DNA from: a virus
Taxonomy: Duplodnaviria > Heunggongvirae > Uroviricota > Caudoviricetes
Reading direction: 5' to 3' (one strand)
DNA: 64,000 nt
IMG/VR virus record: IMGVR_UViG_2541047959_000009
Part shown: piece by piece, positions 3,453 to 58,793 of the stretch
Position numbering within the stretch: the first letter of the stretch is position 1
How the letters are laid out: each line of letters opens with the position of its first letter
The notes under the pieces: generated by a model
What the model was told of the DNA's origin: nothing
Database searches by the model: none
The model's input: only the letters and a program-made list of their open reading frames with translations
Translations under genes and position numbers: made by a program

Positions 3453-3723
3453 GTTTCAGTTCCTCGATCCGGTGTTGTCGTTGTCTCAGCAGCGTGCTGG
3501 TCTGTTCTGCTTCGGCATAGAGCCGCGCCTGCTCCCGGTTATTGGTTTCAGTCAGAATGGACAGGCTGATAAGCTGGCTATTGCTCTTTGCCAGTGCCTG
3601 GCTTTTGCTCTGCAGCTCGTCTGCCTGCGTGCTGATGGTCTGGCTGGCATCAGCCAGCCGCCACGTCTGCCAGCCCAGCGCCGCCAGTAATAACGTCAGC
3701 ACAACCAGCAGCAACCGGTTCAT
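3295..3723 (-). CDS. lysB: LysB-like i-spanin (Rz analogue)
   Basis: 142-aa ORF, N-terminal TM segment then coiled-coil-like region; position after lysA. Confidence 0.7.
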   Translation of the reverse strand: MNRLLLVVLTLLLAALGWQTWRLADASQTISTQADELQSKSQALAKSNSQLISLSILTETNNREQARLYAEAEQTSTLLRQRQHRIEELKRENEDLRRWADTPLPADIIRLRKRPALTGGMAYRQWLSASDAVSAGSGNAAH

Positions 3724-4098: not shown

Positions 4099-4611
4099 TC
4101 AGTTTGCTCCCTGTAAACACCAGGCCATCTCCCGCGCACGGCGGTTATCCAGCCCCTGATTAAAAACACCTTTCACATAAACCCAGCGCGGCAACTGTCG
4201 GCATGCATCCGCCCAGCGCCGCTGATTGAGCAATTTCACCAGCGTGGAACTACAGGCATTGCCCGTCCCCACGTTGAAGGCAAACGACACCGTAGCGTCA
4301 TACACCTTCTGCGGCGGCTGTTGCTTCACACACCTTTCCAACGCCCGCTCCACTCGTAGCACGTTGGAGATCAGCCCTTCAGCTGCCTGTCGTTCCGTAA
4401 TAATTTTGCCGGGAATGACGCCCGACGTATTACCAATGCCGTCGGTCCAGACACCCGCGCTGCACTGATACGGCTGCAGACGACAGCCTTCATAATCAGC
4501 GATCAGTTTCAGTCCCTCCTCGGAGGTGTGAAGCTGCTGAAACCCCGGCAGCGTGGCAGCAATAGCCAGCACGGCCCCGACAAGGCAGCGTTTAACGATT
4601 GATGGATTCAT
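4099..4611 (-). CDS. K: P2 K-like endolysin (lysozyme)
   Basis: 170-aa ORF MNPSIVKRCLVGAVLAIAA...; lysis cassette synteny Y-K-lysA-lysB. Confidence 0.85.
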   Translation of the reverse strand: MNPSIVKRCLVGAVLAIAATLPGFQQLHTSEEGLKLIADYEGCRLQPYQCSAGVWTDGIGNTSGVIPGKIITERQAAEGLISNVLRVERALERCVKQQPPQKVYDATVSFAFNVGTGNACSSTLVKLLNQRRWADACRQLPRWVYVKGVFNQGLDNRRAREMAWCLQGAN

Positions 4612-4807
4612 AGTCCTCCCGCGAGATCTGCCCGTCGCGCAGAAGCTGGTAGGCTTTGTGTTTGTAGTACCAGTTGATAGCCAGCATCAGCACACCGATC
4701 ATCAGGCCGCCCAGCGTTGAGGCATCCTTGATGGACAAATCGCCCAGCCAGGCCAGCACGACGGCGATGCAATACGTGATAAAGGCGCTGATTCGCTCAA
4801 GCGTCAT
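4592..4807 (-). CDS. Y: P2 Y-like holin
   Basis: 71-aa protein with two TM helices immediately upstream of the endolysin. Confidence 0.8.
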   Translation of the reverse strand: MTLERISAFITYCIAVVLAWLGDLSIKDASTLGGLMIGVLMLAINWYYKHKAYQLLRDGQISREDYESINR

Positions 4808-6227: not shown

Positions 6228-7286
6228 TTACGCTCCGGTTTCTGCTGCTGCGGCGCTGAAGTCGCCAATCTGGATGTTTTCCACCAGTGCGGCGCAGCGG
6301 TAGTCCTCAACCACATAGGCTTCGTTAACGGATTCAAAGTTTTCAATCCGGTCACGTTTCGGGTTGTCGATAACTGAGCGGCGGCGGGTGTCTTCCTGCC
6401 AGTAGATGGACAGGTTATCCAGACGGGTGATCAGCAGTGCATTCGGCGGGAAGAACGGCGCACGCACGGCCTGCAGGCCACCCATGCGTTTCTGACTGAT
6501 GATCATATCAGCAGCCAGTTTTTCACTGTTTTCCTGCTCTTTGTTGACCAGCGGGAAATACTTGTCAGACAGCAGTTCACGACCGCAAATCACCACCAGA
6601 TCGTCATCGTCCTGGTAGACCACATCGATAAGCTCATTGACGGCATCCATCACCACGGCGTCCAGGTTGGCATATTCGCCACCTTTCCCGACTTTCACCG
6701 CACCCGGTGTGGTTTCACCGCCCGTGGTGGTGCTGCCCATGACGTGATCCGGTGCATCTTCACGGATTTTCTGCAGCCAGCCTTTGTTCACATCCTGCAG
6801 CAGCGGGTTTTCGCTACGGTTGGAGGTTTTCGCACGCTTCACGCCGTTAAAGCCGATCATGATGCGGTCCAGAGCCTGACGTTTCACGATGGCGTCACGG
6901 ATGCGCACCTGGAAATCCTGAAACTTCGCCCACAGGTCCAGCTTCGCGTAGGTCAGCACCGTGTCAAAGTTGGTCTGCTCGCATTTATATTCCACATCGA
7001 CCATCAGCGTCGGATCGACAGGTTCACGCTCTTTCGCGGTGGTGTCAGTGGTTCCGGCAATGGTGCTGCCAACTCCCAGCCCCAGCAGCTGACCGGACTG
7101 CTCAGTCACTGGCGTGACGTTAATCAGCGTCAGGAAAGCGGCGGACTGCTGGATCTGGTCTTCCAGCGTCTGCTGCACAGACGGCTCCACGGTGAACTTG
7201 CTGGACAGTTCTTCAACTGCCACACCGTTCAGACGCGCCAGCTGCTGCAGGTAAGCGTTAAAAGCAAAGCGGGTATTCTTCTTCAT
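6228..7286 (-). CDS. N: P2 N-like major capsid protein
   Basis: 352-aa ORF MKKNTRFAFNAYLQQLARLNG...; synteny O-N-M. Confidence 0.9.
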   Translation of the reverse strand: MKKNTRFAFNAYLQQLARLNGVAVEELSSKFTVEPSVQQTLEDQIQQSAAFLTLINVTPVTEQSGQLLGLGVGSTIAGTTDTTAKEREPVDPTLMVDVEYKCEQTNFDTVLTYAKLDLWAKFQDFQVRIRDAIVKRQALDRIMIGFNGVKRAKTSNRSENPLLQDVNKGWLQKIREDAPDHVMGSTTTGGETTPGAVKVGKGGEYANLDAVVMDAVNELIDVVYQDDDDLVVICGRELLSDKYFPLVNKEQENSEKLAADMIISQKRMGGLQAVRAPFFPPNALLITRLDNLSIYWQEDTRRRSVIDNPKRDRIENFESVNEAYVVEDYRCAALVENIQIGDFSAAAAETGA

Positions 7287-21814: not shown

Positions 21815-21930
21815 GAGTGGCGGCATAATGGCGGCAAAGAGTTAAAAACACATAAAACAAGGTAATACATCGTAAACTTAAGTGATTGAAAATTAACATA
21901 AATAGTTGTTTTGCAACATGTTATAATGGT

Positions 21931-21975
21931 ATGTAGGAATTTCGGACGCGGGTTCAACTCCCGCCAGCTCCACCA
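21931..21975 (+). other. 45-nt copy of the ssrA (tmRNA) 3-prime end: prophage attachment core
   Basis: atgtaggaatttcggacgcgggttcaactcccgccagctccacca matches the remembered E. coli ssrA 3-prime end; upstream is unrelated AT-rich DNA. Confidence 0.7.
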
Positions 21976-56935: not shown

Positions 56936-57610
56936 ATGAAAACAATCCATGACATCCGGCGGTCTAACGCCAGAAAACTGAGAGATGGTGTTGGCGGGAA
57001 TTCTTCCTTTGCCACTATGATTGATCGCGAGCCAACCCAGACCAGCAGGTTTATGGGAGATGGTGCTACTAAAAATATCGGTGACAGCATGGCACGACAC
57101 ATCGAAAAATGTTTCGACCTGCCTGTCGGATGGCTCGATCAAGAACACCAGACAACGAACATCACAAAAAAACCTGATGTTTCAATCACTAATAAACAAA
57201 TCACATTAGTCCCTGTCATATCATGGGTACAGGCCGGAGCATGGAAAGAAGTTGGATATTCTGAGGTTGATTTGAGCACAGCAGAAACGTATCCCTGCCC
57301 TGTACCCTGTGGGGAAATGACTTATATCTTGCGGGTGATAGGTGATTCAATGATTGATGAGTACCGCCCGGGAGACATGATTTTTGTCGATCCTGAAGTA
57401 CCTGCCTGCCACGGTGACGACGTTATTGCATTGATGCACGATACAGGTGAAACCACCTTCAAAAGGTTGATAGAAGATGGGACACAGCGTTATCTCAAAG
57501 CGTTAAACCCAAACTGGCCTGAGCCTTACATTAAGATCAACGGTAATTGCTCTATAATTGGTACTGTGATTTTCTCAGGAAAACCAAGAAGATACAAAAT
57601 CAAAGCCTAA
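56936..57610 (+). CDS. cI: CI-like repressor (HTH plus S24 LexA-type peptidase domain)
   Basis: 224-aa ORF; C-terminal domain with Ser/Lys autocleavage-type features (GDSM...K). Confidence 0.8.
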   Translation: MKTIHDIRRSNARKLRDGVGGNSSFATMIDREPTQTSRFMGDGATKNIGDSMARHIEKCFDLPVGWLDQEHQTTNITKKPDVSITNKQITLVPVISWVQAGAWKEVGYSEVDLSTAETYPCPVPCGEMTYILRVIGDSMIDEYRPGDMIFVDPEVPACHGDDVIALMHDTGETTFKRLIEDGTQRYLKALNPNWPEPYIKINGNCSIIGTVIFSGKPRRYKIKA

Positions 57611-57639
57611 TCAATGTTTATGAACCTGCTTCGGCAGGT

Positions 57640-57690
57640 TTTTTTATACTTGACAATGTACCTTTGGGATACATAATGTACCCAAGAGAA
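57640..57690 (+). promoter_or_regulatory. Candidate pL-type promoter with operator half-sites
   Basis: TTGACA, 17-nt spacer, ATAATG; TGTACC half-sites like those in the cI/cro region. Confidence 0.35.
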
Positions 57691-57812
57691 ACAACAAACA
57701 GGCAGGACGCCCACGAAGTAGCCGCCTGGGGCATATGAAGTCCAGGATGATTCGTTAGCAACAAAAAAGCGCCCTATAGGACGCTTCGCTCTTTAACAAT
57801 CTGGATGACTTA

Positions 57813-58325
57813 TTACTCAGATTTGAACTTTGGTTCTGGCAAAAGAGGAGGAGTTGAGTCCTCGAATCGTAGCCAGTGCTCCCAGATATCGTGGGATTGT
57901 AATTCCAGAAGACCAATTTGACGTGATGCAACTGCAGTGCCAGCTATAGTTCCTCCTGCATAATCAACCTGGACGGACTTTGACGCTTTCTCAATTAATT
58001 CTGTCCAAGCTTCACTTTCCGCGTTAAAAGAAGCAGTTAATTCCTGCAGACGCTGTGGATCATCCTTGTTGTCTTGTTTCAAACGATTCAGGGCGGCCAC
58101 CGAATACTTATTCTTAACCCAACTAACCTGAGCTAACTGAACTCTCTGACAAGCGTCCATATCAGTAGTTGTTTCCTGAGGCATATCAAAGCAGGAAATA
58201 AAAAAAGTCTCAACACCATCATTTAGACTACTGCTCGGCTGGTTCAAAGCATCAGAAGCATTGGATGCTATCGGTATTATCAGTGCTACCGACAGAATCA
58301 AACGTTTAACATAAATCGCTCCCAT
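57813..58325 (-). CDS. Secreted DUF1311/LprI-like protein (moron)
   Basis: 170-aa ORF with N-terminal signal peptide; antisense to the early-left operon. Confidence 0.45.
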   Translation of the reverse strand: MGAIYVKRLILSVALIIPIASNASDALNQPSSSLNDGVETFFISCFDMPQETTTDMDACQRVQLAQVSWVKNKYSVAALNRLKQDNKDDPQRLQELTASFNAESEAWTELIEKASKSVQVDYAGGTIAGTAVASRQIGLLELQSHDIWEHWLRFEDSTPPLLPEPKFKSE

Positions 58326-58609
58326 TTAATTATCCCCTCTAAGAACAGAGTCATCCAGATTAGCCGAATCCTTGTTGTTGGGGAATAACCAGGCCCACCT
58401 CGCCTGATGTGGCTAAAAGCAGGCACATAACAGCTAAGTATTTTCAACCAGAGAGAATCCTTAGCGTTGTGGTGAATGCGGCTCAGCGCACGCGGGTTAA
58501 GGTTGAGGCTGACAGTCGACCTTCTGTGGATACCCACCCGCCTGGTGTGCAACCTTCGCCAGGCACCGGGAGGCACCCGGCACCACAACTTTATGCTGTG
58601 TGTAGTCCT

Positions 58610-58656
58610 GGCGGTACCAGCTTGTACCCTTGCTTCCGGCTGGTACCGCTCTTTTT
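58610..58656 (+). terminator. Strong intrinsic terminator upstream of early-left genes
   Basis: ggcggtaccagc ... gctggtaccgc 11-bp stem then tcttttt. Confidence 0.6.
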
Positions 58657-58793
58657 ACAAAACAGAGAAGAGCATCACCGGACGACGGGCTCATAACCCA
58701 ATCCACCCGGGCGGCTGCCACCGCAGGTGTTCTTCTCTGTTTTGTGGAGAAACCAACCGACCTTGCAGGGTCGATATGATGAGGAGCAGCAAA

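Follow-up and report, generated by a model that had tools for sequence, protein, structure and literature searches.

An STnc100-type RNA and a linked RNA structure in the early-left leader of an N-less lambdoid prophage

How are the early-left genes of a lambdoid prophage expressed when a strong intrinsic terminator stands in their leader and no N-type antiterminator is encoded? This question is raised by a 64,000-nt stretch of viral DNA (IMG/VR record IMGVR_UViG_2541047959_000009, Caudoviricetes; the whole stretch is called the window here), the final 14 kb of which has 100% identity to a prophage in Escherichia coli ATCC 11775 and ST95 strains. An original prediction, made from the letters of the window, described positions 58330–58790, between a gene for a secreted protein (the moron) and the first early-left gene, as a GC-rich, non-coding leader of about 460 bp, and named a put-like RNA or a small RNA (sRNA) as the possible control element. 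Our analysis pointed to an RNA of the STnc100 type in this stretch, and to a separate conserved structured RNA, here called PLE, directly downstream of the early-left promoter PL.

The STnc100-type RNA and its pseudoknotted core

The Rfam scan that had been suggested as a check aligned 58436–58658 of the plus strand to the whole STnc100 model (RF02076, positions 1–206; cmscan, 45.4 bits), with E values of 7e-8 in a local 3.5-kb search and 1.3e-6 over the whole window. This was the single STnc100-like match in the window, where no Rfam family reached its gathering score. Both signature motifs of the family, UGGUGAAU and CACCGGGAGGCACCCGGCACCA, are exact in this copy, the 22-mer being unique within the window, and the minimum-free-energy fold contains the closing helix and multi-hairpin junction of STnc100 (P1, P2, P4 and P5). 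Judged by homology, the element belongs to STnc100, a little below the threshold but with clear statistical support, and the sRNA option of the original prediction fits the stretch best. The parts of the RNA and the adjoining structures are located as follows.

58436–58658 (+): RNA of the STnc100 family, GCGGC subtype (Rfam RF02076, fold and covariation)
58466–58474 with 58581–58589 (+): core helix P1 (fold)
58478–58493 (+): core helix P2, a bulged hairpin (fold)
~58494–58496 with 58533–58539 (+): core helix P3, short (fold)
58540–58547 with 58557–58564 (+): core helix P4 (fold)
58566–58570 with 58576–58580 (+): core helix P5, loop AGGCA (fold)
58499–58505 with 58550–58556 (+): pseudoknot AAGGUUG with CAACCUU (a segment inside P3 with the P4 loop)
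58610–58656 (+): intrinsic terminator, the RNA 3′ end (RNAfold, about −23 kcal/mol)
58655–58747 (+): long hairpin, 22-bp stem, apical region conserved (fold)

STnc100 is a multi-copy prophage sRNA family with 11 copies in EDL933; expression of family members has been observed, with confirmation of one of them by a northern blot in enterohaemorrhagic E. coli (EHEC) (PMC5331693). The family was recently tied to the PasD sRNAs, and related PasD sRNAs of prophages in enteropathogenic E. coli (EPEC) and EHEC were Hfq-associated by the ligation and sequencing of interacting RNAs (RIL-seq) (bioRxiv 10.64898/2026.05.13.724894). No function has been assigned to STnc100 (PMC9029176). It is counted among the most abundant sRNA families of bacterial genomes. 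The window copy shares with STnc100/PasD the full-model alignment, the signature motifs, the helices, the 3′ intrinsic terminator and the location in a lambdoid prophage. It differs in P2, which reads GCGGC/GC-CGC in the window and CCCCC/GG-GGG in canonical members, a difference of three compensatory pairs.

Composition and folding agreed with the predicted GC-rich stretch of several hairpins. The GC content was 0.55–0.58 over 58400–58800, compared with 0.42–0.47 in the flanks (200-nt windows). The plus strand of 58436–58662 folded at −89.3 kcal/mol (z = −2.9; 0 of 200 shuffles folded equally well), compared with z = −1.3 for the minus strand, and 58655–58800, which holds the 22-bp stem, gave z = −4.5. 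The strong terminator proposed at 58610–58656 was recovered as well: GGCGGTACCAGC (58610–58621) pairs with GCTGGTACCGCT (58639–58650) through 11 Watson–Crick pairs and one G-U pair around a 17-nt loop, and a T tail, TCTTTTT, runs to 58656. A simple terminator scanner skipped this hairpin because its loop limit was 8 nt. In phage ST64B the stem has another sequence, with hairpin and T-run retained. The RNA thus has the 3′ intrinsic terminator expected of STnc100; in most family members the terminator lies 28–40 nt past the core.

Covariation across related prophages, also suggested as a check, was analyzed in cores collected by a pattern search for the two signature motifs, which yielded 81 distinct cores from more than 120 viral contigs. 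For P1, P2 and P3 in 39 diverse sequences, 95% of the cells were paired versus 85% in shuffles, and 83 cells showed double changes versus 28. The covariation score was 0.30, a value reached by none of 500 shuffles, and controls with slid partners gave at most 0.13. P5 (CCGGG-AGGCA-CCCGG) was preset by the search pattern; the copy in the K-12 prophage Qin has a compensatory P5 of CCUGG/CCAGG. The pseudoknot covaried likewise. At least 6 contiguous pairs can form in 73 of the 81 distinct cores, versus 25–35% in the shuffled-loop and cross-sequence controls, and at least 10 different compensating sequences occur across the family (AAGGCUG/CAGCCUU, ACUGGAUA/UAUCCAGU, AGACUGACA/UGUCAGUCU, CCAGUC/GACUGG, CUAGAC/GUCUAG and more). 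The pseudoknot is not part of the Rfam STnc100 structure line, and the word was not found in the 2026 family paper (bioRxiv 10.64898/2026.05.13.724894).

Reading frames over the RNA and the identity of ymfH

Several open reading frames (ORFs) overlap the RNA, at 58409–58696, 58476 onward and 58630–58779 on the plus strand and at 58298–58588 and 58497–58982 on the minus strand, and none has a Pfam family. Comparison of the window with ST64B revealed indels of 1, 1, 1, 20, 1 and 2 nt that break these frames, with the core staying near-identical. The ORFs thus look like the translated noise for which they had been taken, and a conserved small protein gene, the finding that was to refute the idea of a non-coding leader, did not emerge, since no frame is conserved.

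A small protein gene is nevertheless what current annotation implies. The NCBI annotation pipeline PGAP places a coding sequence for a 'frameshifted hypothetical protein' at 58469–58779, and in the K-12 prophage e14 the homologous stretch is annotated as the coding sequence ymfH (4304–4615 of the e14 segment). A ymfH over-expression clone has also been reported to trigger RcaT, the toxin of retron-Sen2. We nevertheless regard a YmfH-like protein gene, frameshifted in this strain, as highly improbable. The GTG start of ymfH lies in the 5′ strand of P1 without a Shine-Dalgarno sequence before it, and the coding sequence crosses the terminator and the long hairpin. An intact frame is not kept among the window, e14 and ST64B, whose indels are not multiples of three, and the substitutions are compensatory for the RNA helices. 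Neither YmfH nor the window ORF has a Pfam family, and the sole PHROG match is restricted to the terminator/hairpin part. The phenotype of the clone is equally explicable by RNA, and it might indeed be an RNA effect. We therefore read the PGAP frameshifted protein and e14 ymfH as translations of the STnc100-type RNA, which is degenerate in e14, together with the terminator and hairpin. This reading removes a 'y-gene' and alters the interpretation of ymfH over-expression phenotypes, such as the retron trigger. Of 5426 complete E. coli genomes, 1826 contain at least 80% of 58430–58760, and 2809 have at least a part of it.

A promoterless subtype in repressor-controlled operons

The family cores divide by their P2 sequence into a canonical (CCCCC) type and the GCGGC type of the window, and this division coincides with a difference in promoters. 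A TAnnnT hexamer precedes GGTGAAT by exactly 14 nt in 45 of 86 distinct non-GCGGC cores and is accompanied in 31 of the 45 by a −35-like hexamer, whereas none of 18 GCGGC-subtype cores has a −10 hexamer at the family position. The window copy accordingly does not have the own promoter of an independent STnc100 sRNA gene. On the same strand, and within 2 kb upstream, PLE accompanies 24 of 30 GCGGC-type cores, at a distance of 0.3–1 kb, and 0 of 63 canonical cores. Canonical copies often stand alone, for example downstream of stx2, whereas the window copy lies inside the PL leader after PLE. We conclude that the GCGGC subtype lost, or never had, its own promoter. In seven viral contigs, two or three canonical promoter-core-terminator units lie in tandem within about 1 kb, and their variable P3/pseudoknot sequences differ.

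The features of the window upstream and downstream of the RNA are as follows.

56936–57610 (+): ymfK/cohE, the cI-type repressor of the LexA family (early-left layout)
57622–57641 (+): terminator of ymfK/cohE (cI) (scan of the window)
57650–57677 (+): PL-like promoter of the sigma-70 type, TTGACA-16 nt-CATAAT with 11 of 12 matches, directly after the cI terminator
57689–57762 (+): PLE, a conserved structured RNA with a three-way junction (conservation and covariation)
57766–57787 (+): hairpin, also the terminator of the minus-strand moron and thus bidirectional (scan)
57787–57799 (+): exact boxA, CGCTCTTTAACAA, directly after the hairpin; the single exact match in the window
57813–58325 (−): moron, a 170-aa protein with a signal-peptide-like N-terminus (ORF list)
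58758–58773 (+): small hairpin, followed by the ribosome-binding site GAGGAG at 58781–58786 and the yfdP ATG at 58794 (sequence, fold and annotation)

The PL transcript probably starts near 57684 and would run antisense through the moron. The first translated early-left gene is yfdP, followed by yfdQ, yfdR and further genes up to the integrase gene (61882–63054), all on the plus strand. This early-left arrangement is common to the window, SfV, SfII, SfIV, ST64B and mEp460. In the window the untranslated leader, from PL near 57684 to yfdP, is about 1.1 kb long. The stretch that had been described as a leader of about 460 bp is indeed non-coding and structured, but it is only part of a leader that begins much farther upstream. 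The repressor protein of the window is identical to the e14 repressor of K-12 (WP_000848748.1), and e14 has the same PL promoter.

The GCGGC-type core also occurs in other operons under repressor control. It is found in the PL leaders of the window, SfV, ST64B and e14 (where the copy is degenerate). In phiES15 its place is upstream of kil, with the DicA-type repressor gene on one side and the kil-gam genes on the other, and in P1 it occupies the intergenic gap immediately ahead of tciA, downstream of the C1-controlled promoters of ban (P1ban/P2ban). In the K-12 prophage Qin it follows right after the dicF terminator (6389–6615 of the Qin segment; Rfam, 34 bits) with the pseudoknot CAGUUAA/UUAACUG. 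At the same position (~2850–2990 of the segment), mEp460 has a paralogue that shares P1 with the core but is otherwise strongly diverged from it, and that is annotated as two minus-strand hypothetical proteins.

The linkage to PL suggests a source for the RNA. We consider it probable that transcription from PL produces an STnc100-type RNA with its end at the 58656 terminator, and that this terminator also attenuates the operon from yfdP to xis-int. Inactivation of the cI/CohE-type repressor would let PL fire near 57684, and the transcript would carry the PLE fold and boxA first, pass antisense through the moron and then enter the STnc100-type core. Part of the polymerases would stop at 58610–58656 and release an RNA with the 3′ module of an sRNA (core, terminator hairpin and U tail), which is likely to be trimmed at its 5′ end to about 220 nt and may act in trans via Hfq. 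Transcription of yfdP-yfdQ-yfdR and onward to xis-int would be attenuated by the same terminator. In K-12 e14, xisE, intE, ymfH and ymfJ belong to one iModulon (PMC12132413), which is consistent with a transcript that passes the terminator.

Transcripts that read through would carry the 22-bp hairpin at 58655–58747, a probable site of RNase III cleavage that would separate the leader from the mRNA. The hairpin is kept in ST64B, with a compensatory change from G-C to A-U and with G-U changes that are workable on the plus strand only; it is also common to mEp460, cdtI and Stx2c phages, and unrelated 27-bp hairpins adjoin the core in other GCGGC-subtype members. We propose the cut because RNase III requires about two turns of double-stranded RNA and because DicF provides a precedent for such processing, being made by termination and RNase III/RNase E processing in the dicB operon. 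The likeness to DicF/dicB goes further, since there too an sRNA module lies within the early-left operon of a defective lambdoid prophage (K-12 Qin). The 5′ arm of the terminator, GGCGGUACCAG, resembles the DicF terminator and is nearly identical to it (GGCGGUAyCAG), and the GCGGC-type core of Qin directly follows dicF. However, the DicF seed regions are absent from the window, and the order is core-terminator here versus DicF-core in Qin. The Rfam DicF model (RF00039) scored 15.9 bits here (E = 5.7) and 28.5 bits in e14, compared with 76.7 for true dicF and a gathering score of 48.

Several observations weigh against an sRNA made from PL. The STnc100 score of 45.4 bits is 1.6 below the gathering score of 47, a classical Hfq-dependent sRNA would have a longer U tail than UCUUUUU, and expression and Hfq association are known only from other family copies, outside the GCGGC subtype. 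A weak promoter-like site at 58306–58333 (9 of 12 matches, no better than chance) is left as a possible local driver. It is unusual for base-pairing sRNAs to have so elaborate, invariant and pseudoknotted a core, which hints at another activity, such as binding of a protein, RNA polymerase or a ligand. The cores of Qin and P1, finally, have no terminator and end 25–35 nt before the start codons of dicB (25 nt) and tciA, an arrangement that looks like a cis-acting element of a 5′ untranslated region rather than an sRNA gene.

These last observations lead to an alternative that we hold to be possible but clearly less probable, namely that the core is a cis-acting structured leader or attenuator. 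It would bind a host protein, RNA polymerase, the ribosome (through the invariant GGAGG in P5) or a ligand and so set the transcription or translation that reaches the often toxic early-left genes, with the sRNA as a by-product. Besides the Qin and P1 cores, this would suit the promoterless state of the GCGGC subtype and its sense orientation in repressor-controlled operons, the conserved spacing between core and terminator, and the invariant unpaired nucleotides and pseudoknot, which are typical of aptamers and protein-binding RNAs. However, about half of the other members are stand-alone promoter-core-terminator units, some in tandem arrays, and therefore the core must do something independent of a downstream gene. 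Nor was there a consistent alternative pairing of core and terminator that could form a switch, and no ligand or partner is known. A riboswitch-like pairing of P2 with the terminator was rejected, since by eye it occurred in the E. coli canonical copies only and not family-wide. An sRNA terminated within the PL leader remains our preferred reading of the element.

As a member of a known family the element is not new in kind. What is new, to the extent checked, is the pseudoknot, the promoterless PL-leader subtype, the identity with ymfH and with the dicF-dicB spacer of K-12, and the PLE linked to it, which seems not to have been catalogued. The pseudoknot, the invariant P5 and the promoterless subtype give concrete handles on STnc100 function in K-12.

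PLE, boxA and the passage of the leader terminator

Analysis of the leader upstream of the STnc100-type RNA revealed the second conserved structure. PLE is closed by P1 (57692–57698 with 57751–57757) and contains H2 (57723–57729 with 57742–57749), and between them lies an invariant stretch of 24–27 nt, CAGGCAGGACGCCCACGAAGUAGCC (57699–57722). Phages of Escherichia, Shigella, Salmonella, Citrobacter, Klebsiella, Pantoea, Yersinia, Pectobacterium and Aeromonas contain it, in 51 records and with 80–100% identity, and so do more than 100 viral contigs. It is unannotated in nearly all listed records, a few of which have a hypothetical protein over it. Among complete E. coli genomes, 1786 of 5426 contain PLE, including MG1655, where it lies unannotated after cohE in e14 (3501–3575 of the e14 segment). 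The pairing was supported by covariation: 89% of the cells were paired versus 71% in shuffles, 99 cells had double changes versus 27.5, and the covariation score was 0.466 versus at most 0.10 with slid partners. An invariant G-U pair fixes the strand. Our own covariance model of PLE gave 89 bits for the window copy and found one copy per phage, never on the side of the early-right promoter PR; PLE had no Rfam match at E ≤ 10, and its core sequence string was not found in a literature search.

PLE starts 10–20 nt after the −10 hexamer in all cases examined, and the adjoining operators vary by immunity type, which places PLE at the 5′ end of the early-left transcript. No universal partner protein was found, because the early-left genes vary and nothing but the repressor and the CII-like gene recurs, which argues for a host factor as the partner, if there is any. 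The hairpin that follows PLE leads directly into the boxA. Among 85 distinct contexts, 14 have GCTCTTTAACAA after PLE, and three more have GCTCTTTAAAAA.

The absence of an N-type antiterminator, which the original prediction had noted, was upheld, as no plausible plus-strand ORF for an N-like protein lies between the PL-like promoter (57650–57677) and yfdP (58794), and the products of SfV orf33 and e14 ymfJ are not arginine-rich. The exact boxA, CGCUCUUUAACAA, about 100 nt into the PL transcript, and the hairpin before it, as in ribosomal RNA operon (rrn) leaders, recall the nut site of lambda and rrn leaders; unlike in lambda, an N protein is lacking, and a boxB-type pentaloop hairpin was not seen after boxA. 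If it worked as in rrn leaders and CRISPR arrays, boxA would protect the long untranslated leader against Rho. Complexes of boxA with Nus factors counter Rho-dependent rather than intrinsic termination, so that boxA alone would not explain the passage of 58610–58656. By its position, PLE is a candidate for this step.

HK022 is the obvious comparison. Its put RNAs consist of two stem-loops of about 70 nt in total with the conserved features GAACGGC, GUCGG...GGCGGG, CAGGAUGA and GGCAAU. They suppress terminators without other factors, are blocked by mutations in the zinc-binding domain of the RNA polymerase beta′ subunit (rpoC), and occur in copies after PL and PR. As in HK022, the early leader of an N-less phage contains here a structured RNA that precedes terminators, and it is PLE, not the flagged stretch, that like putL immediately follows PL. 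That a put-like RNA inside 58330–58790 makes RNA polymerase terminator-resistant would account for the expression of genes behind a leader terminator without an N gene, and yet we judge this to be very unlikely. A covariance model built from eight put sequences (HK022 putL, putR and six homologues), which scored putL at 95 bits and putR at 52 bits, found nothing in 57600–58800 or in the SfV, ST64B, mEp460 and phiES15 leaders with filters off at E ≤ 10. The architectures also differ: the flagged core has five helices and a pseudoknot versus two stem-loops, lies about 780 nt from the promoter and is present as a single copy on the PL side, and canonical family members are independent sRNA genes. 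PLE, too, differs from put in its three-way junction and its restriction to the PL side, and no second copy of PLE or of the STnc100-like core was found on the PR side of the window. Membership in the put family was thus ruled out by the model for both the flagged stretch and PLE. The 8-mer CAGGAUGA is common to put and PLE in different structural contexts, and we treat it as coincidence. What stands of the predicted put-like or other RNA device is the general notion of RNA-based early-left control, for which PLE (57689–57762) and boxA (57787–57799), both upstream of the flagged stretch, are better candidates.

To our knowledge, HK022 is the only N-less lambdoid phage for which the means of passing leader terminators is known. 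A second such solution may lie in PLE with boxA, a candidate that can be tested; PLE is present in phages of at least nine genera. A bolder proposal, to which we give somewhat less credence than to the cis-acting leader, is that PLE and the pseudoknotted core form a two-part, RNA-only cis control of the leader terminator in N-less phages of the e14/SfV/ST64B type. Equally tentative is its mechanistic side, by which the pair would act on RNA polymerase, Rho or the ribosome and STnc100 would be no plain base-pairing sRNA but a binder of a protein, polymerase or ligand, or a ribozyme. In K-12 this RNA, too, lies unrecognised, between dicF and dicB and under ymfH. An intrinsic terminator within 1.5 kb downstream of PLE was found at only 19 of 58 loci, mostly core-linked, and gives no independent support. 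Long-range pairing of PLE with the 5′ arm of the terminator as a means of antitermination was discarded, since RNAduplex found it no better than in shuffles for the window, ST64B and e14.

Some further observations concern the surroundings. The moron protein has a weak Pfam match to LprI (lysozyme-inhibitor) and a match to PHROG 7681. A 24-nt inverted repeat (57798–57821 and 58338–58361) with a perfect 13-nt core, AATCTGGATGACT/AGTCATCCAGATT, flanks its gene; this bracketing repeat may mark the boundary of a cassette or form a long-range RNA helix. On the opposite side of the repressor gene lie the cro-like ymfT and the CII-like ymfL (Pfam Phage_CP76). The PR side of mEp460, SfV and ST64B carries a pair of the C4 antisense RNA and isrK, like immI of P1 (at 323–511, 226–414 and 409–597 of the respective segments), and the window has neither. 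Far from the early promoters, 8540–8604 (+) gave a weak match to the put model (19 bits, rough E of 0.001) that is probably due to chance. At 21905–21975 (+), a partial match to transfer-messenger RNA (tmRNA; 34 bits, E = 5e-10) is probably an ssrA-derived attachment-site fragment of another element.

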